A stretch of DNA of 64,000 bases from a virus. Positions within the stretch are counted from its first letter, which is position 1. Every line of letters begins with the position of its first letter. Positions 6,686 to 58,501 of the stretch are shown here, piece by piece. A program made the position numbers and the translations under genes. The notes beneath the pieces are model-generated. The model made no database searches and was not told the origin of the DNA. It saw only the letters and a list, made by a program, of their open reading frames with translations. Location: the IMG/VR virus record IMGVR_UViG_3300032516_000004, positions 64,001 through 128,000 of that record; one strand, given 5' to 3'.

Positions 6686-7110
6686 TGTCAGATATAACTA
6701 TTAGTATTAAGGGTCCACTACTTAAGCCAGCGCATCAAGCTGCTAATAGTGTTGAAGAAGTAACTAATGATATTCTGCGTACTATTATCGACTCAACTAC
6801 TGATAAAATGGTAAAATATTTTAAGGATTTAATTATAACTAGGATCGAGAGATCTGTGGAGATAGCGGCTTTTGTTGGTCAGAATTCTGACCCAGAAGTT
6901 ATTAGGTCCATTATAAATGGTATTAAAGTAGAAAAGACGCCGACTCAACCACCATCCATATCAATAGAGTTTAAGAATGAATTTGGTGCATGGTATGGTG
7001 AGCCACCCAAAGAACTATTAGAAATGATTAAAGGGGTAATTGATTCGGCGCTCGGGCAGATGTCTGATATTGATATGAACAAAATGTGTGAAGAATTGGT
7101 GAAAGAATGA
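6685..7110 (+). CDS. Hypothetical neck/tail-completion protein
   Basis: Coupled to both neighbours by TAATG and ATGA overlaps. Confidence 0.55.
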   Translation: MSDITISIKGPLLKPAHQAANSVEEVTNDILRTIIDSTTDKMVKYFKDLIITRIERSVEIAAFVGQNSDPEVIRSIINGIKVEKTPTQPPSISIEFKNEFGAWYGEPPKELLEMIKGVIDSALGQMSDIDMNKMCEELVKE

Positions 7111-40288: not shown

Positions 40289-43162
40289 ATGGCAGATCCT
40301 AATATCTTTGGTAGTGTTATACTTGATTCAGTATCAACTGATCCAAGTTCCTCGGAAGATGGGGAGATGTGGTATAATTCTAGTCAGAGTAGATTTAAGA
40401 GAAAACGTGGTGGTGCCATTAAAGAATCTGCCGACACCGATGATGTTACTGATAGAGCAGTTGCTGTGTCGGGTAATGATACTACACCAGGCAGCATAGA
40501 AGCTAAAGTTGTTGCTGGCACAGCTGTTTCATTAGCTACTTTAAATGAAGGTGCAGACGAGACAAGGCAGATATCTGTTTCATTTGGTGCTACAGGATCT
40601 ACAGCATGTGTAGGTAATGATTCGCGGTTGAGTGATAATCGAACAGACAGCAACGCCATCCATAAGGCAACTTCTGGTGAGATTGCGGGTATGACTGAGA
40701 AAGGCACGCCAGTCGGTGCTGACCTGATTGTCATTGAGGATAGTGCGGCCAGTAACGCCAAGAAAAAGGTTCAGATTAGTAATTTGCCGAGTAGTAGCTC
40801 CGATACGAACGCAATCCATAAAAATGCCGCCAACGAAATCAGTACCATTACTGAGAAGACCACAATGGCAGATGCCGATCTGTTCATTCTTGAGGACAGC
40901 GCGGCAAGTGGGGTTAAGAAAAAAGTCCAGTTTGCCAATCTCAAGGGTACAGCATCGGCGGCGGGCGCTAAGGACAACATACAGTTCCGGGGGAGTCAAG
41001 CAGGGTCATTCGCGTCCGATGACTTATTCAAATGGGATGCTGTTGGCCATTACCTGATTGTCGGACCTACAAACCCAAGTCTAAACGGCATTCTGGAGTA
41101 TCTCGAAAAGAACCTGAATACCTACATCCAGGTTTGCCTCACGAACGTGAGTGGTGCGCCTCAGGCATCTACTGACGTTTGTGTTGGCAATGATCTCAGC
41201 ACAGATTTGAATTATTATGGTGATTTTGGGATCAATAGCTCGGGTAATACAGATCCGGCATATCCTCTCCTGTTGACCAACGACGTCTATCTCTACTGCA
41301 TGGATGGCCAGTTTGTCCTGGGCACGGGAACAGCCAACAAGGACGTGGTATTCCATAGTGGTGGTTTTGCGCTTGCCAACGAGCGACTACGAATCACTGG
41401 TGCTGGTAGCGTTGATATTAGTAGTGCATTCTCACTGAGGGGCGCTATCACTCCAACGTCTATTGGAGCCAACCAAAACAACTACGATCCTACAGGGCTG
41501 TCGACCGCCACATTCTTGCGCCTATCATCCAGCGGCTCATACAACATCACGGGATTGGCGGGTGGTACATCGGGTCGTGTCGTTATTATTCACAACATTG
41601 GGGCCAACAACCTAACCTTGAAGGATGAGAGCGCATCTAGCACGGCAGCAAATAGATTTGCCCTACCAAGCACCGATGATTTTGTGCTTTGGCCTGATCA
41701 GACCGTGATTCTCCACTATGATGCCACAACTACAAGATGGCGTGTCATCGGGTGTTCTCGCACACCCTATGGAAATCAGGCGAACACGATTTGCCAAGGC
41801 AATGATTCTCGATTGTCTGATTCTCGTGCCCCCACAGGTACGGCAAGCGGTGATCTGGCTGATACATACCCTAGTCCTACGGTTGCAAAAGCCAGCAAGT
41901 CATTTGCTTTGACCGGTGGCATTGCTCCTGCTTCCATCGGTGCAGACCAAAACGATTACAGCCCAACAGGCTTGGCCGATGCTACTTCGATTCGTCTGAC
42001 TGCCAGTGGTGCATACAACATCACGGGACTTGCCGGTGGTGTTGGTGGCAGGATGATGATCCTGCACAACGCCAGTGCGTTCAAACTCACGATTGTTAAT
42101 GAAAGTTCTGCCAGTACAGCAGCCAACAGATTCCTGCACACGTCAGCACAGAATCTCGTGCTGAACCCAGACCAGAACTGTGAGTTACAGTATTGTGGCG
42201 TATGCTCTCGCTGGCGAGTTACTGGAGCTTCGCGTGCCCCTTATGGCACAACTGTGGATTCAATTTGCCAGGGTAACGATTCCAGACTTTCAGATGCTCG
42301 TACACCAACTAGCCACGCATCGTCACATAACGCGGGTGGTGGTGATGCACTTGCCATTGACGCAGCGGCAGGTACGGGTTCTCTACGAACGCTCGGTACT
42401 GCGGCAACAGCGGCGTGCGCTGGTAATGATTCGCGGTTGAGCGACTCTCGTACACCTACCAGCCATGCGTCGTCGCATAATGCGGGTGGCGGTGATGCGC
42501 TTGCTATTGACGCGGCGGCAGGCACAGGTTCTCTCAGAACACTTGGTACTGGGGCAACAGCGGCATGTGCTGGTAACGACTCGCGGTTGAGTGATTCTCG
42601 TGCACCCACCAGCCACGCGACCAGTCATAAGAGCGCGGGTGGTGACAGCATCAAATTAGATGAGCTGGCCGCACCTACAGACGTTACAACACTCAATGCC
42701 ACCACAGGACAGCACGGTCTCTTGCCGAAGCTCGGTGGTGGGACAGCCAACTTCCTGCGAGCAGATGGTGCATGGGCTGCACCTTCGAGCAGTGGTGTTG
42801 TCCCCAGTGAAGCTACGGCAACCGGCACAACGACTACGACCTCGGCTACAGACGTGCAGATGGACAGCATGACCCTGACGCCAGGTGCTGGGACGTATCT
42901 GGTGATGTTCAGTACATCGGCCGCACATTCAGACGCGGCGGGCGCACTTTACGTGTCGATCTATGCCAACAGCGTACAAGTCGCGGCATCAGAGCGACGT
43001 AGAACAGCCGCCGATTTGAAACAGATCGGCATGGTGGTGCCGCTAGCAACCCAAGCGGTCGTGACGGTTTCAGCCGCACAAGTCATTGAAGTAAAATGGC
43101 GCACAAGCGTGGCAACCGCCACCGCATACCAACGGACCATGACGTTGCTCAAGATTGGGTAG
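40289..43162 (+). CDS. Modular tail-fibre/adhesin-like protein with duplicated domains
   Basis: Five C-x-GNDSRLSD-x-R motifs; two AIHK...IEDSAAS..KKKVQ units; two QNxYxPTGL...YNITGLAGG...ESxxSTAANRF units; two SHASSHNAGGGDALAIDAAAGTGSLRTLGT units. Confidence 0.75.
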   Translation: MADPNIFGSVILDSVSTDPSSSEDGEMWYNSSQSRFKRKRGGAIKESADTDDVTDRAVAVSGNDTTPGSIEAKVVAGTAVSLATLNEGADETRQISVSFGATGSTACVGNDSRLSDNRTDSNAIHKATSGEIAGMTEKGTPVGADLIVIEDSAASNAKKKVQISNLPSSSSDTNAIHKNAANEISTITEKTTMADADLFILEDSAASGVKKKVQFANLKGTASAAGAKDNIQFRGSQAGSFASDDLFKWDAVGHYLIVGPTNPSLNGILEYLEKNLNTYIQVCLTNVSGAPQASTDVCVGNDLSTDLNYYGDFGINSSGNTDPAYPLLLTNDVYLYCMDGQFVLGTGTANKDVVFHSGGFALANERLRITGAGSVDISSAFSLRGAITPTSIGANQNNYDPTGLSTATFLRLSSSGSYNITGLAGGTSGRVVIIHNIGANNLTLKDESASSTAANRFALPSTDDFVLWPDQTVILHYDATTTRWRVIGCSRTPYGNQANTICQGNDSRLSDSRAPTGTASGDLADTYPSPTVAKASKSFALTGGIAPASIGADQNDYSPTGLADATSIRLTASGAYNITGLAGGVGGRMMILHNASAFKLTIVNESSASTAANRFLHTSAQNLVLNPDQNCELQYCGVCSRWRVTGASRAPYGTTVDSICQGNDSRLSDARTPTSHASSHNAGGGDALAIDAAAGTGSLRTLGTAATAACAGNDSRLSDSRTPTSHASSHNAGGGDALAIDAAAGTGSLRTLGTGATAACAGNDSRLSDSRAPTSHATSHKSAGGDSIKLDELAAPTDVTTLNATTGQHGLLPKLGGGTANFLRADGAWAAPSSSGVVPSEATATGTTTTTSATDVQMDSMTLTPGAGTYLVMFSTSAAHSDAAGALYVSIYANSVQVAASERRRTAADLKQIGMVVPLATQAVVTVSAAQVIEVKWRTSVATATAYQRTMTLLKIG

Positions 43163-43172
43163 GAGATTCGAT

Positions 43173-44144
43173 ATGGTGGCCACAAAATACATATACTCGA
43201 TTCAAACAGATTTCCCGAATCACAAGGTCGACAGCACGACGCTGACAACCGAGATCGGACTGTCTGCCATCACGGTCGCGTTGGATCATATTGATACTGC
43301 TGGAGATAACTGCGACATCTGGTTCAAAGCCGCATTGTCCGGTGGCGAAGAGACCATGTTGAATGGAGTTGTGGCCGTGCATCAGGGCATTGCGCCAAGT
43401 CCAGGGATATCCCTGGTTCAGTTGTCTTCTCCGAAGATGACCGACAACAAGCCCTTCTTTACCCCAGACATGTTCCCTGCAGGCACTATCGCGGTGTTTG
43501 CCGATTGCGCCGATAACGCTACAACGGGTGTCCGTTGGGCCGGAGATCGGTTTCAAGTCTCTGCTAATTCCGAAGGTGACACTGTTTTTGAAGCTCAGTT
43601 CATCGATTTATTGTATCTGGTCGGCGGCGATATGGTGCGAAAGAACGGGACTATTGGAGACTACGCAAAACACAAAATCTATTGTCCAGCTACGGCAGGC
43701 ACCGAGAATGTGGGTGCGGGAGATTTCGACAAGTTCCAAGTAGCCACAAGCTGCAATATGTACGTCTACGTCTCGACAGGAGATGGTGACTGGGACTTGA
43801 ACCTGACTGAGAAACTGAACGCCAACGTGAATTTCACCAAGGCTGTTCCAGTGCCATGTGTTCCAGGGACTGGCTGGTTTGATTACAATCCTACGACCGA
43901 CACGCTGGTTGTGAACCCAGACCATGCTGGTAGTTACAATCTGTTCGATTTCGACGTGTATTTGCCGCCACACCTTCCGGTGCTGGGCCTGCTAGGTGAC
44001 GGTACTAGAGACTTGAGGCCATTTGCTGCGAGTCCGAAAGCGTTACTGCCCCATTGGATTCACGAGGTCACTGTTCACCACGGCACCGGCACGCATCAGT
44101 TGGATGTGACGTGGACCCTAATTGTAGGAAGGTATCCATTCTGA
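43173..44144 (+). CDS. Hypothetical (probably fibre-associated structural) protein
   Basis: AGGAG RBS at 43161; shares the GC-rich composition of the upstream gene. Confidence 0.7.
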   Translation: MVATKYIYSIQTDFPNHKVDSTTLTTEIGLSAITVALDHIDTAGDNCDIWFKAALSGGEETMLNGVVAVHQGIAPSPGISLVQLSSPKMTDNKPFFTPDMFPAGTIAVFADCADNATTGVRWAGDRFQVSANSEGDTVFEAQFIDLLYLVGGDMVRKNGTIGDYAKHKIYCPATAGTENVGAGDFDKFQVATSCNMYVYVSTGDGDWDLNLTEKLNANVNFTKAVPVPCVPGTGWFDYNPTTDTLVVNPDHAGSYNLFDFDVYLPPHLPVLGLLGDGTRDLRPFAASPKALLPHWIHEVTVHHGTGTHQLDVTWTLIVGRYPF

Positions 44145-44449
44145 TGAACCGATTCATAGGCAAGACAGGTTACTCGTTCTTGGATGTGTGGACACTACCG
44201 CATCTGGGGTTCTGGGTGTTTATTGGCTCATCCCTGTGGGCCTTGGGCGCAAATCGTTGGTGGGCGTTGCTGGGTTGTATGGTTGCTGCGTATGGCTGGG
44301 AAGCCTTTGAGCATTTCATCGCGTTCAAGCGCTGGCCAGATCGATGGAAGAAACCCGAGAGCTGGTGGAATAGTTTGATCTCGGACCCGTTGACCACGGT
44401 AACCGGTGTCTTGGGCATCTATTGGCTGCTCGACAAGTTTGCTATATAA
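44144..44449 (+). CDS. Small membrane protein, putative membrane metal-dependent hydrolase
   Basis: TGATG coupling; TM helices carrying D.W...H, WE..E and ES..N...D motifs. Confidence 0.5.
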   Translation: MNRFIGKTGYSFLDVWTLPHLGFWVFIGSSLWALGANRWWALLGCMVAAYGWEAFEHFIAFKRWPDRWKKPESWWNSLISDPLTTVTGVLGIYWLLDKFAI

Positions 44450-44460
44450 AGAGGTGGTAA

Positions 44461-44979
44461 GTGGTTCGGCTAGTTTTTACTGCTACTCATAAGATTATTC
44501 CACGACTGATTCGTGCCATTACTAAAAGTGATGTGAGTCACGGCATGATCCAATTTACGTCTAGTTTATGGCCCGAGGATTTAATTGTTGAAGCCACTTT
44601 TCCAAAAGCACATTTAACACCGGTTCACATAGCTAGACATGATGTGGTTTGTGAATTTACTTGTAATTTTGATACAACCGACTCATTTAAAGTTGTTAAT
44701 AATTTAATTGGACAATGGTTTGATGTTCGTGGGCTATTAATTGTTGGTTGGATTAGAATATTATGGATGTTATTTCGTCGTAGAATTAAAGTATGGCATA
44801 CTAGCACAGGTCAACAATTTTGTACAGAATTGGTGGCACGTTTCGTTATAGCAGGAAAGATTCATGGTACTGGCGCACAATTGCCGGATGTTGAAGCATG
44901 GAATCCAGAACGTATACGGCCAGATCATCTTAAGAAATATTGTTTAGAACACCCTAATTTATTCTCACGCATAACATGA
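44461..44979 (+). CDS. Permuted papain-like NlpC/P60 (YiiX/YebB-type) protein
   Basis: Catalytic His first (VSHGMI), EAT, FD..GL, then Cys (QFCTELVA). Confidence 0.7.
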   Translation: MVRLVFTATHKIIPRLIRAITKSDVSHGMIQFTSSLWPEDLIVEATFPKAHLTPVHIARHDVVCEFTCNFDTTDSFKVVNNLIGQWFDVRGLLIVGWIRILWMLFRRRIKVWHTSTGQQFCTELVARFVIAGKIHGTGAQLPDVEAWNPERIRPDHLKKYCLEHPNLFSRIT

Positions 44980-45091
44980 CTCGTGATGCTGTTATTGCCG
45001 CTGTTCTCTTATTGTTGTTGGTAGTGGCGGCAATATGGGACATATTATCTCATAATAATAAATCTTAGTATCTTAAGCAATATACTTAGAT

Positions 45092-47170
45092 ATGAACATC
45101 GCTATTGTTGACAAGTTTCACGATAATCACAATGCGTTTTCTCGACAAATTAAACTTCCAGACCACAACATAGAATATCTTAACAGTCTTTTCGATTTAG
45201 GTAAATACGATTTAGTTCATTTTGATTGGTGTGACGACCTGGCGGTTGCAGGCGTTAGAGTGTTAGAATCTTATAAATCGAGACCCCGAATAACTATCAG
45301 ATTGCATGCTTATGAAGCCCATGAAGATTGGATTAAGCGACTTAATTGGAAAGTTGTTGACGCCTTAATTTTTGTAAGTGAACACTATCGTGAAATTTTT
45401 AATAAGCATGTAACGATGGATAAAACCAAGCAACATGTTATTCATCATGGAATTGATCTTAATCGATATAAACTGGCAGAACATCCAGGTACAGATATTC
45501 TTTATGTGGGGTCCCTTAATTTCAAGAAGGGGCCACAATTATTAGCCCAAGCAGCCATAGCTTTACCAAACCATCAATTTCGTGTTTATGGTGATATACA
45601 GTGTGATCGATCACAAATTTACTTCGATCATTTGGCGTTATCAAATCTTGGATTTTCCGCACACAGTGAACATATTGAACAAATAATGCAACAACCCAAC
45701 TATCGATATATACTTAGCACATCTTTGGGGGAATCTTTTCACTTAGCGGTGGCTGAGGGGATGGCCTGTGGTCTAAAACCATTGGTTCATGATTGGTATG
45801 GTGCAAATAAATTATGGCCTTATACTTGGAGAGCTATATCTTCCTTGGTGGATATTGTTGAATCTTATACAGATGATACCCCTAAAAGTTGTAGACAGTG
45901 GATTGAAGATCATTACAGCGCCACAACACAAGCTGTTAAACTTAATAATACTATTCTCGGAGACGTCATGACTAGAAAACACAAGTCTAAGTCCGGTGTT
46001 TTGGCTAAAATAGATTGTGGGTCTCTAGCCATTTGCATGATTACTAAAGATAATTTCAAAGGGGTAGAACGGGCTGTTCGTAGTTGTGCTAAATATTTGG
46101 ATGCTCTTTATGTAGCGGTGGATGATCGAGATACTGATGATACGGTTAATAAAGTTAAGGGTTTAACGAAAGAACTGAAATTACGTGGACAGGTTACATC
46201 GTTTAAGGCCCCGGATCCTTGGGATTTTAGTTATGCGCGTAATATTGCTCATTCGATGAATGACTGTATGTGGGCTTTAGTATTAGATGATGATGAATAT
46301 GTATTACATCCAGAAGAAATCCCTGAATTGTTAGAGAATTGTAAAGATAAAGATGTCGTGGATGTTACGTGTGGTATGGGGGTTGATAAATATGGGAATG
46401 TATCTCATGCCTGGAAATTTTCTCGATTTATGAAGAATAAAGTTCGATGGATTAATGCACGACATAATATACCCGACGCCACGACATATTCAAGTAGTAC
46501 CATTTGGACAGGTGATATTGTGGTGGTGGATGATAAATCTATACGACCAACTGATATACGCGCTGCCAGAAATGAGCAACGTGAGACTAACGTTGAGATA
46601 TTTAGAAAGAAAGTAGATCAGAATCCAAATGATACTAGATCACTTTTTTATCTAGCAACAGCACACAAAGAATCTGGAAAATATTGGGAAGCAATACTCT
46701 GGTATCAACAATATCTTAAAACTGGTGGGTGGGATGAAGAGCGTTGGCAGGCGTATTATGATATGGCAGAATGTCAGATTAACCTTCGTCGATACACAGA
46801 AGCTAGAGAAAGTTTGTATAACGCCATTAAGGAAAAATATGATAGGGCAGAGGCATTCATACTAATGGGTGACGTTTTTTATGAGTGTGAAAGTTTTTAT
46901 GATGCTATGATATGGTATGAACTCGGCTGTGCGTTACCATACCCGCACGACGCACGATTATTTATTCAACGCAGCATCTATGATTGGGAAAGGTACGATA
47001 AGTTGTCAATGGCTCATCACCACCTAGAAAATTGGTCTAGAGCAATCGAAAATGCTAAAAAGGCATTAGAAAAAGTACCGGGTGATGATCGTATAAATAA
47101 AAACGTTCAATTATGGACAGAACACTTAGTTAAGGAGTCTACCGATGCCACCGAAGAGAAAGATGTCTAA
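45092..47170 (+). CDS. Fused GT4 (GT-B) + GT2 (GT-A) glycosyltransferase with C-terminal TPR repeats
   Basis: GT4 E-x7-E (GESFHLAVAEGMACG); GT2 AICMITKD...DFSYARN...WALVLDDDE; TPRs (PNDTRSLFYLATAH..., ERWQAYYDMAEC...). Confidence 0.85.
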   Translation: MNIAIVDKFHDNHNAFSRQIKLPDHNIEYLNSLFDLGKYDLVHFDWCDDLAVAGVRVLESYKSRPRITIRLHAYEAHEDWIKRLNWKVVDALIFVSEHYREIFNKHVTMDKTKQHVIHHGIDLNRYKLAEHPGTDILYVGSLNFKKGPQLLAQAAIALPNHQFRVYGDIQCDRSQIYFDHLALSNLGFSAHSEHIEQIMQQPNYRYILSTSLGESFHLAVAEGMACGLKPLVHDWYGANKLWPYTWRAISSLVDIVESYTDDTPKSCRQWIEDHYSATTQAVKLNNTILGDVMTRKHKSKSGVLAKIDCGSLAICMITKDNFKGVERAVRSCAKYLDALYVAVDDRDTDDTVNKVKGLTKELKLRGQVTSFKAPDPWDFSYARNIAHSMNDCMWALVLDDDEYVLHPEEIPELLENCKDKDVVDVTCGMGVDKYGNVSHAWKFSRFMKNKVRWINARHNIPDATTYSSSTIWTGDIVVVDDKSIRPTDIRAARNEQRETNVEIFRKKVDQNPNDTRSLFYLATAHKESGKYWEAILWYQQYLKTGGWDEERWQAYYDMAECQINLRRYTEARESLYNAIKEKYDRAEAFILMGDVFYECESFYDAMIWYELGCALPYPHDARLFIQRSIYDWERYDKLSMAHHHLENWSRAIENAKKALEKVPGDDRINKNVQLWTEHLVKESTDATEEKDV

Positions 47171-47429
47171 ACACGACGACCCTAACAGTGAGTTAGTGTT
47201 TCGCAATTGGTCTAAAGAGCTTGATGAACTTATTGGTACACTTCCAAAAGGCGTAGAGTGTGTCGCTATTGGTTGTGGAAATAAATCGTCCAACCGTGGT
47301 GCATTTTTGTGTGTTGAATGTGGTAAGAAATACCTGGATTCATATAAGAATGTTGTTAGTGTCACAGAAATTGCTAGAGCACAGTTTGGTTGGATCATGC
47401 ACAATGTGCTTGCTCAAGATCCAGAGTAG
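47145..47429 (+). CDS. Small Cys-motif (Zn-finger-like) protein
   Basis: CVAIGC...LCVECG. Confidence 0.55.
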   Translation: MPPKRKMSKHDDPNSELVFRNWSKELDELIGTLPKGVECVAIGCGNKSSNRGAFLCVECGKKYLDSYKNVVSVTEIARAQFGWIMHNVLAQDPE

Positions 47430-47960
47430 ATGCCTACCAGTCATTGGCAGCAGTTAAATGAAATTGTTGGTTTAATTATATCGATTAAACCTAAATCCAT
47501 ATTAGACATAGGTGTTGGGTTTGGTAAGTATGGCATGCTGGCTCGAGAGTATCTTGAGCTATGGGATGGAAGAAATATTTATAATGAGTGGAAAGTTAAA
47601 ATAGATGGAATAGAGGTTTTCTCGCAGTATAAGAACCCAATATATGATTATATATATAACAACATTTATTTTGGTAATGCTTCTGAAATTGTGTCGTTAT
47701 TAGGAAATAAGTATGATTTAGCACTCATGATTGATGTGATAGAACATTTTGATAAAGATGTTGGATTACAATTAATAAAAGACTGTTTGAATATATCAAA
47801 CAATGTTATCGTATCGACCCCCTTATCTGTTACAGATCAAAAGTCTGCTTTTAATAATCAGCATGAGACACACAGGTCGTCGTTTGTAGCTGGTGATTTT
47901 CCAAACTGTAAAACAGTTGTCCCAAATTCAAAATCGCTAATTTGTGTTCTGAGCTGTTAA
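47430..47960 (+). CDS. Class I SAM-dependent methyltransferase
   Basis: ILDIGVGFGKYG motif I; DGIE; YDLALMIDVIEH. Confidence 0.85.
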   Translation: MPTSHWQQLNEIVGLIISIKPKSILDIGVGFGKYGMLAREYLELWDGRNIYNEWKVKIDGIEVFSQYKNPIYDYIYNNIYFGNASEIVSLLGNKYDLALMIDVIEHFDKDVGLQLIKDCLNISNNVIVSTPLSVTDQKSAFNNQHETHRSSFVAGDFPNCKTVVPNSKSLICVLSC

Positions 47961-48097
47961 AACCGAACACCATTTCGTAGCACAAATTTGTGTTCTTTCC
48001 ACGCATTTTAAATAATGTACACCTGTACATGGTTGTTGGTATTGGGTTAATTACTAAGACTAACTTTAATATTGAATATTCTTGGTAAGAGATAAAA

Positions 48098-48226
48098 ATG
48101 ACGTTTAAGAAAACAAGTAAGGGTATCACGATGGGCGTTATTGAACAGCCAAAACCAGTTCAAGAGTCCACCGTTGAAGTACAGCAGCCAAATAAAGATA
48201 AGCTTGAAGAGAAAAATAAAAAATGA
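48098..48226 (+). CDS. 42-aa ORF coupled to the prohead protease (below the ORF-track cut-off)
   Basis: MTFKKTSKGITMGVIEQPKPVQESTVEVQQPNKDKLEEKNKK; its TGA overlaps ATG48223 (ATGA). Confidence 0.4.
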   Translation: MTFKKTSKGITMGVIEQPKPVQESTVEVQQPNKDKLEEKNKK

Positions 48227-50877
48227 GTTCTAAAGGTTTTATTAAGACGGCCTCCGTCTCCACAATAGCGGTTGCTATTAGTGATGGTAAAATTTTTCAG
48301 AAGTCCGCTGCATACAAAGACGAACAGGGCAGCGCATATCTAAGCGGCTCACGTACAATTGATATTAAAGCGGCTCTGGATATTGTGGCCTCTGAATATA
48401 ATATCTCGCCAAATCCAGAAGATTACGTATTTGAAGCAATTCGTGGTAACACTGCTAACATTCCTAATGAAAATCATGACGCATTTCATAAGAATGAATT
48501 ATTGCGATTCGATCACCGATTGGGCAAGCAAGTTTATCGTACGTATGAGCTTAAGCCACACCATGTACAACATCGAGCAAGTGACCCTAAGGCCGCTCGT
48601 GGCTTTATTGTTGATGCCCACTATAACGACTCAGCAGGGCCACTAGATGAGTGTCCTAATTGTGGTCATAAGACCGCTAGCAAAGAGGGCCGTGATCAAA
48701 GCGGTATTCATTGTGCTAGCTGTGGGTCTGTGGTTAAAGACGAATATGTAGAACTTCTCATAGCCATTGATAAGACTAAAGACCCCACATTTGCCCAGGG
48801 TGTAATGAGTGGTGTTCTTAAGCATGGATCGATGGGATGCAGTTGTCTTCGTACTCGTTGCAATGTTTGTGGTAAAGTCGCGTATACTAGAAGTGAGTTT
48901 TGTGGACATATTGCTCGCGGTAAGGGCAAAGAATATGACGAATCAGAACCTGGTTTTAATCCGATAGCTTTTGTTGTAAAAGGGTCGAAGGATAAGCGAG
49001 CTAGTAAACCCAAAAAGATAGCTAAGTCATTTGAGTGGTGTGAGGGTGTAATTTACGACGAATTTAGTCGTGTTCATGATCCAGCAGATCCTAAAGCAGA
49101 GCAGTATGAGATTCTTAAACTCACGGCTAAGGTAGCTGAACTTGAACATACTGATAAATTACGAAACGAATCAGAAATTCTTACTCTTCAGGCTAGAGTA
49201 GCTGAACTTGAGCGAAAGTTGGGTGAGAAATTGAATAAGATAGCACAAGTAGTTCCTCCGGTAGATCCTATGATGGCTCCCCCGGTGGATCCCATGATGG
49301 CTCCTCCGGTGGATCCAGCAGCGGCTCCTTCCAGTGTTCTTCCCTCTTCAGCTGCTGGACAACCACCGGTTGTTATTAATATTAATGCTCCTGGTGTTGG
49401 TGTTGATTCTGAGCAACCTCTTGAAGAGGTTCCAGCGCCACCTAAGATCCCTATTGAAGAAATGACCCCCGAGAGTGAAGGAATGACCCCCGCTGGACCA
49501 GGTGAAGCTTTAACGCCTGCGGCCATGGGTATTGAAGAAGAGAAGGAAGCCCCAGCCGCTCCAAAACGTGGAGCAAGTGTTGATAGGGCATTGAGAGAAA
49601 TGATTAACAATTTAGGAGGCCCATCCATGCTCCGTTTTGCACAATCTTATAAGCATATTAAGGCAGAAATTACCAGTGCTGGTAATGTTAGAATTTTTGA
49701 TTCAGAGGGAACACTCTTTGTAGTTAAACCAGATCGACTTGATTCGAACATTAAGATAGCGGCCAAGAATCCAGAAGAGCTGGCCAAGTCAGTTTTGACC
49801 ATGGTTGCTGATTTTGGTATTGGCGGCGCTATTAAACGAACCAATGCTATTGTTGGTCCACGTTTGGCTCAGGTTCTTGAGTACGCAACTGACGACATTG
49901 AGGATGAGGATCGTATCAAGACTGATTCTATTAAGGATAAAGAAGATTCTGACATGACACAGGAGCGCGCTAAGCCAGAAGATAGCGCCACTGAGGCTGG
50001 TGAGTCGGCTGATCGTCAAGAGACTCAGGAAGTTAAGGGTCTTGGTGATAATGTTCTTGTGGATCGTGAAGTTGATGTAGAGGATGAGAAACATACTCGT
50101 GAGCCTGGTAAGGATCAATGGGGTGGCTTCAATATTCTTGAGATGCAGGATGCCGACACTAAAGAGAAGCGGGAAAAGAAAGATGTTGGCAAGGATACGG
50201 TCGTGAAGAACATTCAAACAGACCATAAAGAGAAGGTAGCTGAAAAGACAGAATCTAAGAAATATGATAATCAAGTTCACGCTGCCCGCTTAGAGGGTAT
50301 TTACAAGGCACGACTGGAACGGAAGATTGCTGATTTGACCAAAGAGAAGGAAGATTTCAAAAATAATCTTGTGGCTCGAGTTACCCGTGCTATGAAGCTG
50401 GTTGCTCATCGTCAAGCGCTGAATCTTGAATATTCGCCGCTTAAGTTGGCTATGGGTGTTGCGCTTTGTAATAAGCGTGCCCTGAATGATAAAGAGTTTT
50501 ATAATCCCATGGATCAGGGGACCGCAGTTCAGTTGATTGAGGCGGCGTTCAGTGAGCCTATTATTGAGGGTGTGGATAAGGCGGCTTGGGAACACCATAT
50601 CGATTCATTGATTGAACGCGCCGCGTCTGTAATGCAGATGAACGATGAAGCGCTTATGCAGGTGGAGACTGATCTTAGAAATATTAAGACAGCCACTATT
50701 CCGTTTGATGAAGCGGTTGTTAATACGGATGGTGATTTTGAGTTGAAGCAGGCTGCTAAGCAGGGTAATTTGCAGCTTGCACCGAAGCCAGTTGATGACG
50801 CGCCAGCTATTAACAACAAGCGTGAAGCGATTCGACGTGCAGTTGGTACAACTAAAGTGGCTAGTTTAGCGAGGTAA
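48223..50877 (+). CDS. Prohead maturation protease fused to a scaffold-like region
   Basis: KPHHVQH...ARGFIVDAHY, SMGC...CNVCG...FCGHI and EFSRV.DPAD..A are protease motifs of large phages; coiled-coil, Pro-rich and acidic C-terminal regions; lies upstream of the capsid genes. Confidence 0.75.
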   Translation: MSSKGFIKTASVSTIAVAISDGKIFQKSAAYKDEQGSAYLSGSRTIDIKAALDIVASEYNISPNPEDYVFEAIRGNTANIPNENHDAFHKNELLRFDHRLGKQVYRTYELKPHHVQHRASDPKAARGFIVDAHYNDSAGPLDECPNCGHKTASKEGRDQSGIHCASCGSVVKDEYVELLIAIDKTKDPTFAQGVMSGVLKHGSMGCSCLRTRCNVCGKVAYTRSEFCGHIARGKGKEYDESEPGFNPIAFVVKGSKDKRASKPKKIAKSFEWCEGVIYDEFSRVHDPADPKAEQYEILKLTAKVAELEHTDKLRNESEILTLQARVAELERKLGEKLNKIAQVVPPVDPMMAPPVDPMMAPPVDPAAAPSSVLPSSAAGQPPVVININAPGVGVDSEQPLEEVPAPPKIPIEEMTPESEGMTPAGPGEALTPAAMGIEEEKEAPAAPKRGASVDRALREMINNLGGPSMLRFAQSYKHIKAEITSAGNVRIFDSEGTLFVVKPDRLDSNIKIAAKNPEELAKSVLTMVADFGIGGAIKRTNAIVGPRLAQVLEYATDDIEDEDRIKTDSIKDKEDSDMTQERAKPEDSATEAGESADRQETQEVKGLGDNVLVDREVDVEDEKHTREPGKDQWGGFNILEMQDADTKEKREKKDVGKDTVVKNIQTDHKEKVAEKTESKKYDNQVHAARLEGIYKARLERKIADLTKEKEDFKNNLVARVTRAMKLVAHRQALNLEYSPLKLAMGVALCNKRALNDKEFYNPMDQGTAVQLIEAAFSEPIIEGVDKAAWEHHIDSLIERAASVMQMNDEALMQVETDLRNIKTATIPFDEAVVNTDGDFELKQAAKQGNLQLAPKPVDDAPAINNKREAIRRAVGTTKVASLAR
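49255..49320 (+). repeat. 24-nt in-frame tandem repeat (PPVDPMMA x2 plus a partial copy)
   Basis: cctccggtagatcctatgatggct / cccccggtggatcccatgatggct / cctccggtggatcca. Confidence 0.9.
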
Positions 50878-50882
50878 GATTG

Positions 50883-50923
50883 CCTTCCTAGGACAAATGC
50901 ATTGTGCATGAATCTAGAGAAGG
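50883..50923 (+). promoter_or_regulatory. Interrupted hairpin in the leader of the decoration gene
   Basis: CCTTC/GAAGG, CTAG/CTAG and ATGCA/TGCAT nested stems. Confidence 0.45.
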
Positions 50924-50956
50924 TGTTTTGGCAAACCAATTTAAAGGAGAAAAACA

Positions 50957-51754
50957 ATGGGTTCTACAGGTTTGGCCAGTCCTAGGTTAGGCGCATTTCA
51001 GAATGCCGTCTTCCCGCGAGGACTAGATTTGGGTCGGTGTGTGATTCTTCAGGATCTTGGTGTCTTCCGCGCAGCATCAGCCGCCAGTTTCGAAGCTGGT
51101 ATGTTGGTACGGCAAGACGCTACCGGTAACATTGAAAAATGTGCTGGTAAGTCAGTTCTCGGTGTGGCAAAGTGGAACAAATCTGTCGTTTTCACGGCAG
51201 CGTCGGTGGATGAGCCGATTTCGTTCCCAACCGCAACGGCAGCTGTGGCCTTGAAGCATCCAAATGTTAGCAACTTCCAATTGCGTAGTGCTGTGAGTCT
51301 TGGTGGTGTTAAGTACGTGCTCACAAACGATTACACCATTAATACGACCAATGGTATTGTTACCCGAGTGAATCCGGGTACAACACCAATTCCGCTCAGC
51401 ACAACGGTATATACAACATATACCTATGAGTTGGCTTCGGCGGATCTGGACTTCCAGGGTCGTAACTTCTGGAATTTCACGGACGATGTTACCATTCAGG
51501 ATAACAGAATTACGGTTATCACCGATGCATCAGCTCTGTTTACCTCAATGTATGACACATCTCGTGATGATTACGCGCTTACGGGTGCAGGGAAGAACCT
51601 GTACTGTGGTGGTGGCGTTACGGCAGCTCTGGCTGGTTTGTTCACGACAGACAGTGCTGAAGGTGAGTTCGTTGGACACGTTATCCAACCTCCGACAGCC
51701 GATGACCCGTTCCTCGGCGTTCGGTTGGGTGGCGATCCAGTGAAGTATGCATAA
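50957..51754 (+). CDS. Capsid decoration/cement protein with an inserted Ig-like domain
   Basis: AAGGAG RBS; directly upstream of the MCP; FEAGMLV...GVAKW, Y.LTNDYTINTTNG insert, VGHVIQPP...FLGV. Confidence 0.6.
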   Translation: MGSTGLASPRLGAFQNAVFPRGLDLGRCVILQDLGVFRAASAASFEAGMLVRQDATGNIEKCAGKSVLGVAKWNKSVVFTAASVDEPISFPTATAAVALKHPNVSNFQLRSAVSLGGVKYVLTNDYTINTTNGIVTRVNPGTTPIPLSTTVYTTYTYELASADLDFQGRNFWNFTDDVTIQDNRITVITDASALFTSMYDTSRDDYALTGAGKNLYCGGGVTAALAGLFTTDSAEGEFVGHVIQPPTADDPFLGVRLGGDPVKYA

Positions 51755-51768
51755 TTAACCCGGTGAAT

Positions 51769-51793
51769 GGGGTGGGACATTTTGTCCCACCCC
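51769..51793 (+). terminator. Perfect 11-bp hairpin between the decoration and capsid genes (terminator or mRNA stabiliser)
   Basis: GGGGTGGGACA-TTT-TGTCCCACCCC, followed by only a weak U tract. Confidence 0.55.
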
Positions 51794-51834
51794 TTCTCCC
51801 ACAAGGAAAGTTTATTAACTAGGAGGATTGGAAA

Positions 51835-53097
51835 ATGAGTGCAGTTATTAATCCGTACAAGCGTCTTGCTGCAGCCGGGGCGGCAAAGCCTACCAGCGAG
51901 CAACGTAAAATGGTTGCAAGTTCTGCCACGCCGAAGGCTGTTGAGCAACATAGGACAAAGGCGGCAGAAAACACTCATCTGGCTTCTCGTGAAGATGAGA
52001 AGGTATGGGATGAGAGTGGAACATTTAACCCCACCGCGTATGCCGGTGAGACGACCCGCGATGGTATTCGTCAAGCGGTTGGCAACACCAAGCTGTCAGA
52101 GCGTATGTTCGACAAGCGTGGTGAAGTTAACGCGTATGATGACAAGGACGCCCTGCAACAGATTGCCTACTTGCTCCAAAGTGTAACCAAGAAGGCATCT
52201 CCTGGCACCTTCTATCGTGAAGCGTCTACTGATATGCCAGCTGAGGAGCGCCGCAAGGTTCTCGCAGCCGCCATGCAGGATCCCTCGGGTGAGGGTTTCG
52301 CGATTGTTGGTCAGGAGTTGTTGCTCCCGATCAAGGACATCATCGATTACGAAGGTTGGGCTCGGAAGATCTATCGGGTTCGGCCACTCGCTCAGGGTGA
52401 GTTGTTCCGTATCGCGAAGGATGTTCGTGCAACGGCTTGGGTTGTGGGACAAGATGGTCAGTCGATTGAGAGCCGTTTGTTCGGTCGTTTCATTCAGCCG
52501 TCAGAGTTCAAAGTTACGGCATTCCCGACCGTCGACATCGAAGACATCTATCAGATGAACTATGATGTTTTGGATCGCGCTCAGGATACCGCTCGTCAAG
52601 AGATCGAGTTGGAAGAGGACAAGCGAGGCTTGGCTCTTCTAGATCGAGCTGCTTTGACCGTGAATTCGGTTACGATTTTCGCGACTCTTGGAATTTCGGC
52701 GTTTGAAGACGTTCGATACCAGGTTGAGCGGCATCGTCTGATGGTTGAGAAGTTCTTGATCAACCGTGCCGAGCTTTCTGATATCGTGAAGACCATGAGT
52801 ACTCAGGTGGATCCGGTGACCGAGCGCGAGTTGATCCTCGCCGGTTATATTGGTAACATCTTGAATGCTCAGATCATCACGGCCGCTGGTACTGGAGTTG
52901 AGGAAGTGGTACCGAGAGGGACATTCTACGCAGCCACCGGTAGTGAGTATCTTGGCGAGATGGGTGTAAGGGTGGAACTGTTTTCTGAGCCCTTCAACAT
53001 GTTTTCGCACCGTCGATTAACGAAGGGTTGGGCGTTTGGCGAGATCGTTGGGTTCGGTATTCCGAACCCACGTAGTGTCAGCAAGGGACACAAATAA
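51835..53097 (+). CDS. Major capsid protein (HK97 fold)
   Basis: AGGAGG RBS; GQELLLPI...DYEG.ARK...QGE...AKD; P..EFKV.AFP.V..EDI; D..Q..A.Q.I..EED; follows protease and decoration genes. Confidence 0.85.
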   Translation: MSAVINPYKRLAAAGAAKPTSEQRKMVASSATPKAVEQHRTKAAENTHLASREDEKVWDESGTFNPTAYAGETTRDGIRQAVGNTKLSERMFDKRGEVNAYDDKDALQQIAYLLQSVTKKASPGTFYREASTDMPAEERRKVLAAAMQDPSGEGFAIVGQELLLPIKDIIDYEGWARKIYRVRPLAQGELFRIAKDVRATAWVVGQDGQSIESRLFGRFIQPSEFKVTAFPTVDIEDIYQMNYDVLDRAQDTARQEIELEEDKRGLALLDRAALTVNSVTIFATLGISAFEDVRYQVERHRLMVEKFLINRAELSDIVKTMSTQVDPVTERELILAGYIGNILNAQIITAAGTGVEEVVPRGTFYAATGSEYLGEMGVRVELFSEPFNMFSHRRLTKGWAFGEIVGFGIPNPRSVSKGHK

Positions 53098-53125: not shown

Positions 53126-53148
53126 TGTGGGGCGCTCGTCGCCCCACA
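53126..53148 (+). terminator. Rho-independent terminator candidate after the MCP
   Basis: TGTGGGGCG-CTCGT-CGCCCCACA stem followed by an AT-rich tract. Confidence 0.6.
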
Positions 53149-53199
53149 TTCATATTAAATCTTACATAATTGGTATATTTTATGCAACTATAGAATAAT

Positions 53200-54621
53200 G
53201 TGGCTCAGCGCATTGATATATCTGAAGATGCTTTAATACAAGATTGTGAAAACGGTCTTTTACAATCTGAAATGGCCCGAAAGTATAATGTGAGCAAAAC
53301 CACTATTAGTCAAAAGATTAAATTATATGGTATAAAATATACACCACGTTCTCAAAATCCAAGATATAGTGCTTTAATGTCTCAAGCATCTAATAAAATG
53401 TGGGACAATCAGGAATTACGACAACAGACTGGCAATCGAGCTAAGCAGCGCTGGGCCACAGAGCAATATCGTGAGAAGATTCAAGAAACTTACCAGAAGA
53501 CAGATTACGCGAAGCGTCAGGGTGAAATATCAAAGTTGGCGTGGCAGGATGATAAATATAGAAATCACTTAGTGTTATTATTTACATCTAATGAATTTAG
53601 AAATAAACAGCGTCAAAAATCTAATGATTGGTGGAATGATCCAAATAGAAGGCAGCAAGCTAGTAAAAGGACAAAACAAAATTGGACTAATGAAGAATTT
53701 CAACATAAGGTAGCAGTTGGTCAGAGTAAAGTTCCAAGAACAATGACCACCCCACATAGGCAGGTATGTAATTTACTTGATGCTATGGGCATAGAATATC
53801 AAACAGAGGTTCCAATAGCTAAGTATAGATTTGATATTTTGATACCTTCTCATAAGCTTTTTATTGAAACACAAGGTGATTATTGGCATGGTGAAAAGAA
53901 AAATGTAATCTGGCGAGATAGGGCTAAAGGATCATACATAGCCAACAATTTTCCGCAGTATAGGTATAAAGAATTATGGGAACATGAATGTGAGACCGAA
54001 GATTATGTTAGACATAAGCTAGAATATTGGCTTGGTGCTAAAATAAATCTTAAAGATTACAATTTTGACGATATACAAATTAAAACTGTAGATCGTGATG
54101 TGGCTAGTAAGTTTATTCGTGATTGGCACTATTTACATAAAGGCAGATTTGGTCTAGATATAGGTGGCTTTATAAGTGATCAGCTGGTTGTGTTGACTCG
54201 TTTTACGTCTGTTACTCGTCTCGAAATGGCTACAACAATAGGCTACCATCATAAAGAGGTATTGGAATTATCTAGATTATGTATCCATCCAGCATATCAG
54301 AAGAAGAATCTGGGTTCTTGGTTTTTGTCACGAGTTGAGGGTGTCATTAGACATTTAAGACCAGACATTAAGTGTTTGGTATCGTTTGCTGATATGACAT
54401 ATGGACATACGGGGGCAGTTTATAAGGCATCAAATTGGCAGTTAATATCAGAAACTAAACCAGATTATTGGTATGTGAAAGAGGATGGTTGGGTAATGCA
54501 TAAGAAAACATTATGGAATAAGGCTAAGGATGTTGGATTAACTGAAAACGATTTTGCTGCTAGATTTGGATATGTTAAAGTGTGGGGTAAAGAAAAATTT
54601 AAGTTTATTAAGAAACTGTAG
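53200..54621 (+). CDS. HTH + NUMOD-like repeats + DUF559/Vsr-like PD-(D/E)XK nuclease + Mom-like GNAT domain fusion
   Basis: QSEMARKYNVSKTTI HTH; W-x-D/N helical repeats; YRFDILIP...FIETQGDYWHG; FIRDWHY...LELSRLC...NLGSWFLSR...LVSFAD..YGHTGAVYKASNW. Confidence 0.75.
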   Translation: MAQRIDISEDALIQDCENGLLQSEMARKYNVSKTTISQKIKLYGIKYTPRSQNPRYSALMSQASNKMWDNQELRQQTGNRAKQRWATEQYREKIQETYQKTDYAKRQGEISKLAWQDDKYRNHLVLLFTSNEFRNKQRQKSNDWWNDPNRRQQASKRTKQNWTNEEFQHKVAVGQSKVPRTMTTPHRQVCNLLDAMGIEYQTEVPIAKYRFDILIPSHKLFIETQGDYWHGEKKNVIWRDRAKGSYIANNFPQYRYKELWEHECETEDYVRHKLEYWLGAKINLKDYNFDDIQIKTVDRDVASKFIRDWHYLHKGRFGLDIGGFISDQLVVLTRFTSVTRLEMATTIGYHHKEVLELSRLCIHPAYQKKNLGSWFLSRVEGVIRHLRPDIKCLVSFADMTYGHTGAVYKASNWQLISETKPDYWYVKEDGWVMHKKTLWNKAKDVGLTENDFAARFGYVKVWGKEKFKFIKKL

Positions 54622-56061: not shown

Positions 56062-56511
56062 TTAGATTTTTTGGTCCCAGTACATACGACCTTCAATAAT
56101 TTCTTGTCTTACACGCATTAGTATCTTACCCAGATGATTTTGTCCTTTGCCGCCACATACACCCCAGAACTTATCACCCCAGGTATTACCTTCGATCAAT
56201 TCTACATTACCGGTTCCTAATAGATCTAGGGTCAACGATGGGCTGTTAGCAAACTTATTACGAACCAAATATTCCATGAGCGGTATTTTGATTTTGCTGA
56301 AGTCAGCACGCATGGTGACCTGTCTACCTAGAATCCTCGCATCTCCTGGTGAATAAGTGTTTCGTATCGCCTCACTGGCCTGTGGATTAAACGTTTTGGT
56401 TGCTTGATATGCATGTTCTACAGATTTATATTCAATACCATTTAAGTATACCGGTGATTCATAAAAATTAGACAGGAATCGATAAATACCTGTGAACCTA
56501 TTAATTGCCAT
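56062..56511 (-). CDS. NADAR family protein (YbiA-like N-glycosidase / ADP-ribosylglycohydrolase)
   Basis: FLSNFY...SVEHAYQATK...LIEGNTWGDKFWG...G.N.LGKILMRVR. Confidence 0.9.
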   Translation of the reverse strand: MAINRFTGIYRFLSNFYESPVYLNGIEYKSVEHAYQATKTFNPQASEAIRNTYSPGDARILGRQVTMRADFSKIKIPLMEYLVRNKFANSPSLTLDLLGTGNVELIEGNTWGDKFWGVCGGKGQNHLGKILMRVRQEIIEGRMYWDQKI

Positions 56512-56555
56512 GTAGCGATATATAAATTTGATGTTCTATTAATTTATAGTTAGAC

Positions 56556-57128
56556 ATGGCGATTTGGTTTACATCGGACACACATTTCAAACACGCTAAC
56601 ATCCTTAAGTATTGTGGTCGTCCATTTGACAATATTGGGACTCATGATCAGACGCTAATTAAACGTTGGAATAATAAAGTTCAGCCAGATGATGTGGTAT
56701 ATCATTTGGGTGATTTTGCGTTTGGTAGATCAGAAGATTGGATGACGATTATTAGACAATTAAATGGTTGTATTAATCTGATCAAGGGCAACCATGATCA
56801 TAGTGATAAATTGAAGAAACTCAAGGAATTACCAGGCAAGAATCTCAATTTCTTGGGTCACTATCACGAGGTAAAGGTTGACGATGAAGAAATGGATGTT
56901 ACTCAGGTAATTGTGCTATTTCATTACCCGATTGAGTCATGGAATAAGCGACATCATGGGTCTTGGCACCTACACGGCCATACGCACAATAATCTTATGT
57001 CACCAGAGTATCAGGCTAGGCTGGATGTTAGCGTTGACAGTCACGATTATTCGCCGATTTCTTATGATGACGTGAAAACACTGATGACCCGAAAGGTATT
57101 CAAGGTAATCGATCACCACGGGTCATAG
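56556..57128 (+). CDS. Calcineurin-like metallophosphoesterase
   Basis: SDTHFKH, LGDF, GNHD, FHYP, HGHTH motifs. Confidence 0.9.
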   Translation: MAIWFTSDTHFKHANILKYCGRPFDNIGTHDQTLIKRWNNKVQPDDVVYHLGDFAFGRSEDWMTIIRQLNGCINLIKGNHDHSDKLKKLKELPGKNLNFLGHYHEVKVDDEEMDVTQVIVLFHYPIESWNKRHHGSWHLHGHTHNNLMSPEYQARLDVSVDSHDYSPISYDDVKTLMTRKVFKVIDHHGS

Positions 57129-57354: not shown

Positions 57355-57960
57355 TTATTTCTTAACCGAGTTCATATAGAACCATCGATTCGGCGCATAG
57401 ATGACCCATTGTTCACCGTCCCATCGTTTGAACACGTCATCGCCGGGATTGTAGTAACAATCACCAGTTGTGGGTGATTCTGGGCATTTGTCTTCCGCTT
57501 GTAACAGCATGCCGCTTCGGTCCACAGAGTTTTCTCGATGGATCTTGATTGTTTCCCGATCGCTATTGATTAGTGCTAGAATTAATACAGAAACATGTGG
57601 GTCTTCACACGGTTTCCACATATTGTTACCTAACATGTCTTTACTTAGAAATTCACATTTAAGTTCGTAGTTCGAGGTATCATACGACTTTGGTACCCAG
57701 GCGGCTCGCCAAGTGTTTTCTTGATTTGTCCATTCCACATATTGGGGTTTCTTATCACATCTACACCCAACATCTTTACAAGTAAGTTCTTTAGCCATTG
57801 ATAGCTCCTCACAGCATTTTTGACAATCTCGATTGTCGTTTGCAATTAAATATAGGTTAATCGGCGATCCACCATTAAAGAAATGATTATTAATAGTATG
57901 GTCCAAATCTGGTAAAATGTCTTTCCAGTTTTGGAGTGACACAACAGTTACTTTATTCAT
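57355..57960 (-). CDS. Hypothetical Cys-rich protein
   Basis: Start refined to ATG57960; C-terminal PTTGDCYYN...RWDGEQW motif. Confidence 0.55.
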   Translation of the reverse strand: MNKVTVVSLQNWKDILPDLDHTINNHFFNGGSPINLYLIANDNRDCQKCCEELSMAKELTCKDVGCRCDKKPQYVEWTNQENTWRAAWVPKSYDTSNYELKCEFLSKDMLGNNMWKPCEDPHVSVLILALINSDRETIKIHRENSVDRSGMLLQAEDKCPESPTTGDCYYNPGDDVFKRWDGEQWVIYAPNRWFYMNSVKK

Positions 57961-58501
57961 TTTTGGTACTCTTGGCCCTTTTGGCTGCAAGCTTGGCAGT
58001 TTCTTGTTTGTGGCACTGGCAACATAGGGTTCTATAATTGTCGAGCCCACATTCGCCACCACCTTCAATGACCGGTATAATATGGTCAGCATCCCAAATT
58101 CCATACCAGGGTCTGGATCGATACCGATGAACCGGTATTTTGAGTTCTTGGAGCTTTGTCATTAGCTTAACGTTTTTGAGAATATTGTTTTCATATTCCC
58201 AGGTGTATTGATTCTTTGGGCCGTTTTTATCTTCAAGCTTTTCTAGTTTTTTGACCAGGGCTTTGCAATCTATACCACATATGGTACAAACACCGTGGTC
58301 TCGAGCATATAACTTGGTTCTTACATATGTAGGATTTGTTTTGATTTTCCAACGATCTACACATTGATCGCCACAAAATGATCGGCGACCCACTGGTACT
58401 TCAGCGTTACATTGCCGACATAAGGCTCTATCATTGGGTCCACGAGGTAAAGCCTTGGGATTAACCCAGCCCCGCTGTCCGCTAACTCGCTGAGTGCTCA
58501 T
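57953..58501 (-). CDS. HNH endonuclease
   Basis: CRQC...FCGDQC; RDHGVCTICG; WDADHIIPVIEGGG...LDNYRTLCCQCH. Confidence 0.85.
   Translation of the reverse strand: MSTQRVSGQRGWVNPKALPRGPNDRALCRQCNAEVPVGRRSFCGDQCVDRWKIKTNPTYVRTKLYARDHGVCTICGIDCKALVKKLEKLEDKNGPKNQYTWEYENNILKNVKLMTKLQELKIPVHRYRSRPWYGIWDADHIIPVIEGGGECGLDNYRTLCCQCHKQETAKLAAKRAKSTKNE

Follow-up and report, generated by a model that had tools for sequence, protein, structure and literature searches.

We analysed a 64,000-nucleotide stretch of DNA from a large uncultured phage (the window), covering positions 64001-128000 of the complete 177,941-bp IMG/VR virus record IMGVR_UViG_3300032516_000004 (labelled G000), and describe here a gene located immediately downstream of its major capsid protein (MCP) gene. 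In the product of this gene, referred to as the Hef-Mom gene, a nuclease core of the type found in phage Hef homing endonucleases is fused to a C-terminal domain of the Mom family. Coordinates are window positions unless preceded by a label, with G001 and G002 standing for complete relative genomes, L numbers for IMG/VR loci and P numbers for proteins. The features of the locus are collected in Table 1.

Table 1. Window coordinates of the Hef-Mom gene, the domains of its product and the surrounding features.
Feature	Position	Strand	Description and basis
Major capsid protein (MCP) gene	51835..53097	+	Conserved essential neighbour of the Hef-Mom gene
G+C-rich hairpin, terminator-like	53126..53148	+	9 pairs (7 G-C), loop of 5, weak T tract
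Hef-Mom gene	53200..54621	+	Complete, free-standing gene for a Hef-type homing endonuclease with a Mom domain at its C-terminus; 473 aa from a GTG start
N-terminal three-helix helix-turn-helix (HTH), aa 9-42	53224..53325	+	AlphaFold2 helices 9-17, 22-28 and 33-42; weak Pfam HTH_3/HTH_28/HTH_50 matches
Eight-helix array, aa 54-177	53359..53730	+	AlphaFold2 model; five W-x-D/N-P-x-Y-R-type repeats
Vsr-like EDxHD nuclease domain, aa 180-278	53737..54033	+	Catalytic D212, E223, H230, D240
Mom-family GNAT domain, aa 287-473	54058..54618	+	Pfam PF25680; 8bv8 top fold match; six Mu Mom residue equivalents
Unknown-function protein	56062-56511	-	phrog_1017, 4.6e-41; downstream accessory region
Phosphoesterase	56556-57128	+	phrog_547, 1.4e-55; downstream accessory region
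HNH endonuclease gene	57953-58501	-	Several HNH PHROGs, best 2.4e-12

A sequence-only reading of this DNA had delineated the same open reading frame (ORF) and quoted a series of motifs from its product (FDILIP...IETQGDYWHG, WHY, ELSRLC, SWFLSR and SFADMTYGHTGAVYKASNW), all of which were found in the protein. A longer ORF is ruled out by an in-frame TAG at position 53191, upstream of the GTG start, and the start itself is supported by homologs, including a second copy in the same genome, whose alignments begin at residue 1-6. The spacer between the MCP stop codon (53097) and the start of the Hef-Mom gene measures 102 bp and contains the hairpin listed in Table 1, consistent with the proposed position of the gene just past an MCP terminator, although the T tract is weak. 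Across this boundary, G+C content (GC) falls from ~0.51 in the capsid gene to ~0.36 in the Hef-Mom gene. Since an Rfam search at E ≤ 1 returned zero matches to an intron or other RNA element at the locus, and a search for flanking repeats around the gene found nothing meaningful, we regard the Hef-Mom gene as free-standing. A promoter scan of the locus gave matches no more numerous than in shuffled sequence. The MCP shares 64-92% identity with its counterparts at 32 IMG/VR loci and 72.7% with that of Virus Rctr197k, the nearest named relative of this virus.

From its N- to its C-terminus, the Hef-Mom protein consists of four parts: an HTH motif, about eight helical repeats, a Vsr-like nuclease core of the EDxHD type, and a Mom-family GNAT domain. 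An AlphaFold2 (AF2) model based on 69 homologs (mean predicted local distance difference test score, pLDDT, of 91.8) displayed an HTH, eight helices, an alpha/beta nuclease core and a GNAT-like domain. Pfam matches to the HTH were stronger in the homologous proteins P0005 and P0013 than in the Hef-Mom protein. The helix array that follows is presumed to be a modular DNA-binding or specificity region. The Hef-Mom protein gave no match to Pfam NUMOD; Pfam GerD matches seen in relatives were sub-threshold, fell on the helical repeats, and were not taken as real.

The nuclease domain aligned with the homing endonuclease I-Bth0305I (3r3p) both in sequence (phmmer E = 3.7e-5, aa 180-278) and in predicted structure (Foldseek TMt 0.81, root-mean-square deviation 2.7 Å, 31% identity), with additional weak Pfam matches to Vsr and to the MTES_1575 restriction endonuclease (REase) family. 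The earlier assignment of this region to a Vsr-like derivative of the PD-(D/E)XK nucleases therefore stands, and can be narrowed to the EDxHD/Hef type. The EDxHD family was defined by residues E170, D196, H213 and D222 of I-Bth0305I, together with a conserved acidic E206 (Taylor et al. 2011, PMC3239194), and the same study explicitly placed phage Hef-type homing endonucleases in the family typified by I-Bth0305I (PMC3239194). In the order E170/D196/E206/H213/D222, the equivalents in the Hef-Mom protein are H186/D212/E223/H230/D240, with four of the five positions kept. D212, H230 and D240 were invariant, and position 223 was E or D in all 69 of 69 relatives.

The C-terminal domain was recognised as Mom by Pfam PF25680 (E = 7.1e-26, 91.6 bits against a gathering cut-off of 27.1, aa 292-443), phrog_1384, annotated 'Mom-like DNA modification protein' (1.7e-27), and phmmer against Mu Mom 8bv8 (E = 1.7e-6, aa 287-437), while Foldseek ranked 8bv8 first (E = 8.7e-12, TMt 0.61-0.65), followed by many GNATs. 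The proposed identity of this domain as Mom/GNAT was thus borne out. The HTH-like insertion typical of the Mom C-terminus is present in the alignment, shorter than in Mu Mom. Mu Mom moves glycine from Gly-tRNA(Gly) onto adenine N6 (Silva et al. 2026, PMC13219725); R111, S124, D149 and R151 are essential in that enzyme, and H58, Y59, Y159, W48 and W181 are important (PMC13219725). In the alignment with Mu Mom, whose sequence was taken from the Mu genome record, H310, Y311, R359, S373, D398 and Y408 correspond to H58, Y59, R111, S124, D149 and Y159. Six of the seven residues required for activity in Mu Mom are thereby kept, and are invariant or nearly so in the clade.

We then considered how the two domains vary among relatives. 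Both catalytic sets were intact in 120 of the 123 sequences scored, a set made up of 120 metagenomic proteins and three named phage genes. Averaged over 69 relatives, identity to the query was highest in the Mom domain (48.5%), followed by the nuclease (40%), the HTH (27%) and the repeat array (22%). The N-terminal region ranged from 170 to 421 aa in length among relatives, and the C-terminal module held steady at 182-207 residues. Conserved C-terminal domains joined to a variable N-terminal array fit a design of constant catalytic modules attached to a variable specificity module. Judging from these alignments, selection acts on the nuclease and Mom active sites alike, and the Mom domain is very probably an active acyltransferase and not a decayed relic.

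The fusion of the two domains is not confined to this virus. An exhaustive search with the Mom domain only retrieved 1,620 cluster representatives at E ≤ 1e-3, of which 330 reached E ≤ 1e-30, and in ~144 of the 150 best clusters the Mom domain lay at the C-terminus of a protein of 308-874 aa. Three of the six short matches came from contigs of only 0.7-1.3 kb. In the two short matches with readable DNA the frames were open to the contig end, and one of them showed the nuclease motif LWEHE; these two are therefore fragments of fused genes. A split version of the system, with a standalone Mom beside a separate nuclease gene, was looked for and not found among the closest short candidates, which lie on these small contigs and of which the two with readable DNA are the fragments just described. 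The nuclease-Mom fusion thus appears to be obligate in this clade, as far as the retrieved sequences indicate. Two endonuclease-annotated profiles, phrog_559 and phrog_3339, span both the nuclease and the Mom regions, and the nuclease-Mom architecture therefore recurs in phages.

Comparison with Hef-like genes of six cultured phages (JC221, phiR1-37, Campylobacter F361, Vibrio VP-1, Thermus YS40 and E. coli ph0011; loci L048, L049, L055-L058) separated the Mom-like tails into two groups. Group A comprises the Hef-Mom gene, its paralog, the L019 homolog and metagenomic relatives, all of which keep the Mu Mom catalytic set. The six cultured-phage genes form group B. Their products share the layout of N-terminal array, Vsr-like nuclease and Mom-like GNAT domain, with tblastn alignments spanning both domains, but are only ~25% identical to the Hef-Mom protein and, unlike it, lack the S124 loop, carrying a GNAT-type 'GGASKLL' motif instead, and have Y59 replaced by L, I or M. 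The Pfam Mom match was accordingly graded, from 7e-26 in the Hef-Mom protein to 1.7e-10 in phiR1-37 and none in JC221. Because the Mu-type residue set is kept, the Mom domain of group A is more authentic than that of the named Hef-like enzymes. A tblastn search with the nuclease domain alone found eight phage records, including the intron-borne, Mom-less I-Bth0305I, too few to correlate an intron or intein location with the lack of Mom and a free-standing one with its presence.

The distribution of the gene among relatives is sporadic. In most of the 32 IMG/VR loci with a related MCP, the MCP gene is directly followed by a homolog of the gene at window positions 177-1097, with no nuclease gene between the two, and the Hef-Mom family is absent from both complete relatives, G001 (166 kb) and G002 (161 kb, with terminal repeats). 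Conversely, in one other lineage, L018 and L019 encode a 566-aa homolog (39% identical) immediately after the MCP gene, and L020 has a truncated one. The second paralog in the genome (P0002; G000:140581-142206, L054:1582-3207) is a 541-aa ORF, 40% identical to the Hef-Mom protein, with seven N-terminal repeats against five in the latter; by protein-level synteny, its insertion falls exactly between two genes separated by only 46 bp in G001. GC is 0.356 in the Hef-Mom gene and 0.313 in the second paralog, compared with 0.41 in the genome. Capsid-gene neighbours were also found in unrelated phages, with the family member of JC221 lying between gp23 and gp24 and that of ph0011 directly after the MCP gene. 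Sporadic presence, precise insertion of the paralog, low GC and recurrent essential neighbours are what is classically seen with free-standing homing endonuclease genes. That a mobile or homing element had inserted after the MCP gene, as first suggested from the sequence, is upheld by the pattern of presence and absence and by the precisely inserted paralog, and we are highly confident that the Hef-Mom gene is mobile and encodes a Hef-type nuclease with a Mom-family domain. The 3' end of the MCP gene and the spacer downstream of it are likely to be the homing target region in relatives without the nuclease gene.

The MCP spacer was also seen to be a hotspot for other insertions. In L014 it holds an HNH endonuclease and an FAD oxidoreductase (L014:11315-12079), in L021 and L024 a dCMP deaminase (L021:11914-12345 and L024:11599-12120), in L019 the Hef-Mom homolog together with an HNH gene (L019:11230-14830), and in L011 an unknown ORF (L011:11279-11857). 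In L035 the MCP match itself is divided into two pieces (L035:5882-7263, with pieces at 5882-6229 and 6508-7263) separated by a gap of ~280 bp, which may reflect an insertion, an intron or a frameshift in the capsid gene.

At a larger scale, G000 and G001 are collinear except for a block of ~10-13 kb ending in the scaffold/protease, small head and MCP genes, and also including the tail of an upstream fibre-like gene. This block occupies ~104.3/106.9-117.1 kb in G000 (window ~40289-53097) and ~148.0-140.3 kb in G001, a shift of ~50 kb, and the vacated site (G000:60796-63713) contains six minus-strand ORFs without a G001 homolog. The displacement may reflect a genuine rearrangement or an error of assembly. 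The Hef-Mom gene lies exactly at the 3' edge of the displaced capsid block. Nuclease genes have been reported to mark boundaries of genetic exchange between phages (PMC10448857), and the position of the Hef-Mom gene at the block edge, along with similarity that ends at the MCP stop codon, fits this role.

The best explanation of these observations, favoured tentatively and judged to fall somewhat short of probable, is a selfish free-standing homing endonuclease gene of the Hef/EDxHD type that resides beside a capsid gene and whose Mom domain would protect the carrier genome. The variable N-terminal HTH and helical-repeat array would pick the DNA site, and the Vsr-like domain, through D212, E223, H230 and D240, would cut that site in co-infecting relatives lacking the gene. 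Recombinational repair from the carrier genome would then copy the Hef-Mom gene in, as suggested by the published behaviour of the family and by the pattern of presence and absence. The Mom domain would most likely attach an acyl group to N6 of adenines in the DNA to which the protein is bound, with host aminoacyl-tRNA as the presumed donor by analogy with Mu Mom, and cognate or near-cognate sites in the carrier genome would be spared, so that the protein would act as a cut-or-protect element on a single chain. A tRNA-Leu(TAA) (G000:16304-16391, minus strand) is the genome's sole tRNA gene, tRNA-Gly being absent, and any aminoacyl-tRNA donor would therefore have to come from the host.

The sequence-only reading had proposed that the nuclease carries its own protective modifier. 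The intact Mom catalytic residues, invariant in the alignments, make this plausible, and self-protection as the role of the Mom domain is a possibility we take seriously while stopping well short of calling it probable. The most specific form of the idea, in which the Mom domain would acylate adenine at the nuclease's own site via host aminoacyl-tRNA and so confer a built-in epigenetic self-immunity, following the logic of restriction-modification (R-M) with acyl chemistry, and in which group A would be the active form and group B derivatives without the chemistry, seems doubtful.

Several observations weigh against the cut-or-protect explanation or limit its detail. The predicted template modelling score (pTM) of the AF2 model was 0.55, which makes the inter-domain geometry unreliable. 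Past the MCP stop codon, nucleotide similarity to relatives is lost, and blastn of the flanks of the second paralog against G001 found nothing; the flanks are too diverged for the insertion boundaries and target site to be mapped at nucleotide level, which leaves protein-level synteny as the only usable guide. In the nuclease, the equivalent of E170 is H186, a position occupied by Q, H or E across the family. In the Mom domain, the equivalent of R151, essential in Mu, is T400 (T or S in the clade), and W48, a dimer residue of Mu Mom, is replaced by D. The R154-equivalent is an invariant H in the clade, and the standalone Mom-like protein of Enterococcus phage PMBT2 shows the same T/N...H pattern at the R151 and R154 positions, which may therefore be a family variant and not a sign of decay. 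The lack of the S124 loop and of Y59 in group B means that the family can exist without canonical Mom chemistry, weakening the case for an obligatory protective role. Finally, a PurA/PurZ-like adenylosuccinate-synthetase homolog (phrog_1211; G000:129324-130733, L053:1324-2730) lies 1324 bases past the window end, scoring below the cut-off both for NCBIfam PurZ (139 bits, cut-off 300) and for archaeal-type PurA (186 bits, cut-off 368). If the virion DNA holds 2-aminoadenine, the substrate of Mom would not be adenine. A homolog of this gene is also found in G001, which is without the Hef-Mom gene, and the two genes are therefore not linked.

The departures from Mu Mom just listed can also be read as the signature of a Mom-like domain that no longer modifies DNA and instead aids DNA binding, base flipping or dimerisation, with self-immunity provided by sequence differences or disruption of the target. 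Group B lacks the S124 loop and Y59, yet its type is reported as homing endonucleases; the R151- and W48-equivalents of the Hef-Mom protein are T and D; and the second paralog, precisely placed between two genes, may itself disrupt its target. We nevertheless consider such a structural role unlikely, given that over 100 proteins, at 35-55% identity, preserve the six Mu Mom activity residues with little or no variation and that the Mom domain is the best-conserved region, a pattern hard to explain by a purely structural or target-reading function.

The strong conservation of the Mom domain would also suit a phage weapon, in which the nuclease would hit host DNA or that of superinfecting phages and the Mom domain would broadly protect the phage genome from it and from host restriction. 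A prediction of this kind has been published for Mom-REase fusions of jumbo phages (Iyer et al. 2021, PMC7824862), and Mu Mom is itself a broad anti-restriction enzyme (PMC13219725). Against this stand the zero copies in two complete close relatives, the two paralogs per genome with differing N-terminal arrays, and the hallmarks of selfish homing, namely precise insertion of the paralog, essential-gene neighbours in several unrelated phages and low GC, which together leave a weapon improbable. A selfish homing element accounts for the evidence better than a defence weapon. Action of Mom on another substrate (host DNA, tRNA or DNA ends made by the nuclease), or gating of cutting by aminoacyl-tRNA binding, is very unlikely, for although the Mom co-substrate is Gly-tRNA(Gly) (PMC13219725) and a phage with only tRNA-Leu would depend on its host for it, and although the replacement of R151 and the clade-specific invariant R340 and H403 suggest altered substrate handling, the HTH-like insertion and DNA-facing Mom residues appear kept in the alignment and the apparently obligate joining to a DNA nuclease suggests that DNA is the substrate common to both.

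The Hef of phage U5 is reported to cleave nrdB (Edgell et al. 2010, PMC2988022), and Hef-like genes have been annotated for a long time, for example in LIMEstone1 (F-LimIII/VII/VIII/X; PMC3296691). Hef-like genes of T4-like, ViI-like, Campylobacter, Vibrio and jumbo phages (for example JC221 gp166 and phiR1-37 g171) are similarly free-standing beside essential genes, and those of cultured phages often occur in several copies per genome, as here. I-Bth0305I shares with the Hef-Mom protein the Vsr-like fold, the equivalents of D196, E206, H213 and D222, and an N-terminal modular DNA-binding region; it differs in being encoded in a group I intron, in its length of 266 aa, in the absence of a Mom domain, and in having E170 where the Hef-Mom protein has H. 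With Mu Mom, the Hef-Mom domain has in common the GNAT fold with a Mom-type C-terminal insertion and the residues H58/Y59/R111/S124/D149/Y159. Mu Mom, however, is a standalone dimer under Com/Dam control that acts genome-wide against restriction, whereas the Hef-Mom domain is fused to a nuclease and carries T, H and D in place of R151, R154 and W48, respectively.

Type IIC/IIG R-M enzymes unite a nuclease and a DNA-modifying domain in one chain, with a shared DNA-recognition module. The likeness is one of analogy only, since the Hef-Mom protein has no methyltransferase and no homology to these enzymes, its modifier is a predicted acyltransferase, and its genomic behaviour is that of a homing gene. 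The closest precedent is the set of Mom-REase fusions described, with a cut-and-protect prediction, in jumbo phages (Iyer, Anantharaman, Krishnan, Burroughs, Aravind 2021, PMC7824862): architecture and cut-and-protect reading are the same, the reading being a prediction there, and the phage analysed here, at 178 kb, is just below the usual jumbo threshold.

The Hef-Mom architecture is accordingly not new, the EDxHD placement dating from 2011 and both the fusion and the cut-and-protect idea from 2021, and the family extends over hundreds of 50%-identity clusters. Our additions are modest: the distinction between groups A and B, the apparently obligate fusion in group A, the recurrent capsid-gene neighbourhood and the position at a breakpoint. 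As a gene annotation, the finding is ordinary, and its real interest is confined to the function of the Mom domain. Target polymorphism is the usual explanation for self-sparing by free-standing homing endonucleases. An active DNA-modifying domain fused to the nuclease would, if true, represent a different solution to self-sparing and the first acyl-based cut-and-protect element. The donor, the essential residues and the crystal structure of Mom were settled only in 2026, and the role of the Mom domain is therefore now directly testable; since the group A clade keeps the Mom catalytic set, it suits such a test better than the cultured-phage Hef-like genes do.

Downstream of the Hef-Mom gene, the accessory region that includes the unknown-function and phosphoesterase genes (56062-57128) is mostly without counterpart in G001. 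A homolog of the HNH endonuclease gene located further downstream in the window adjoins the Hef-Mom gene in L018 and L019.

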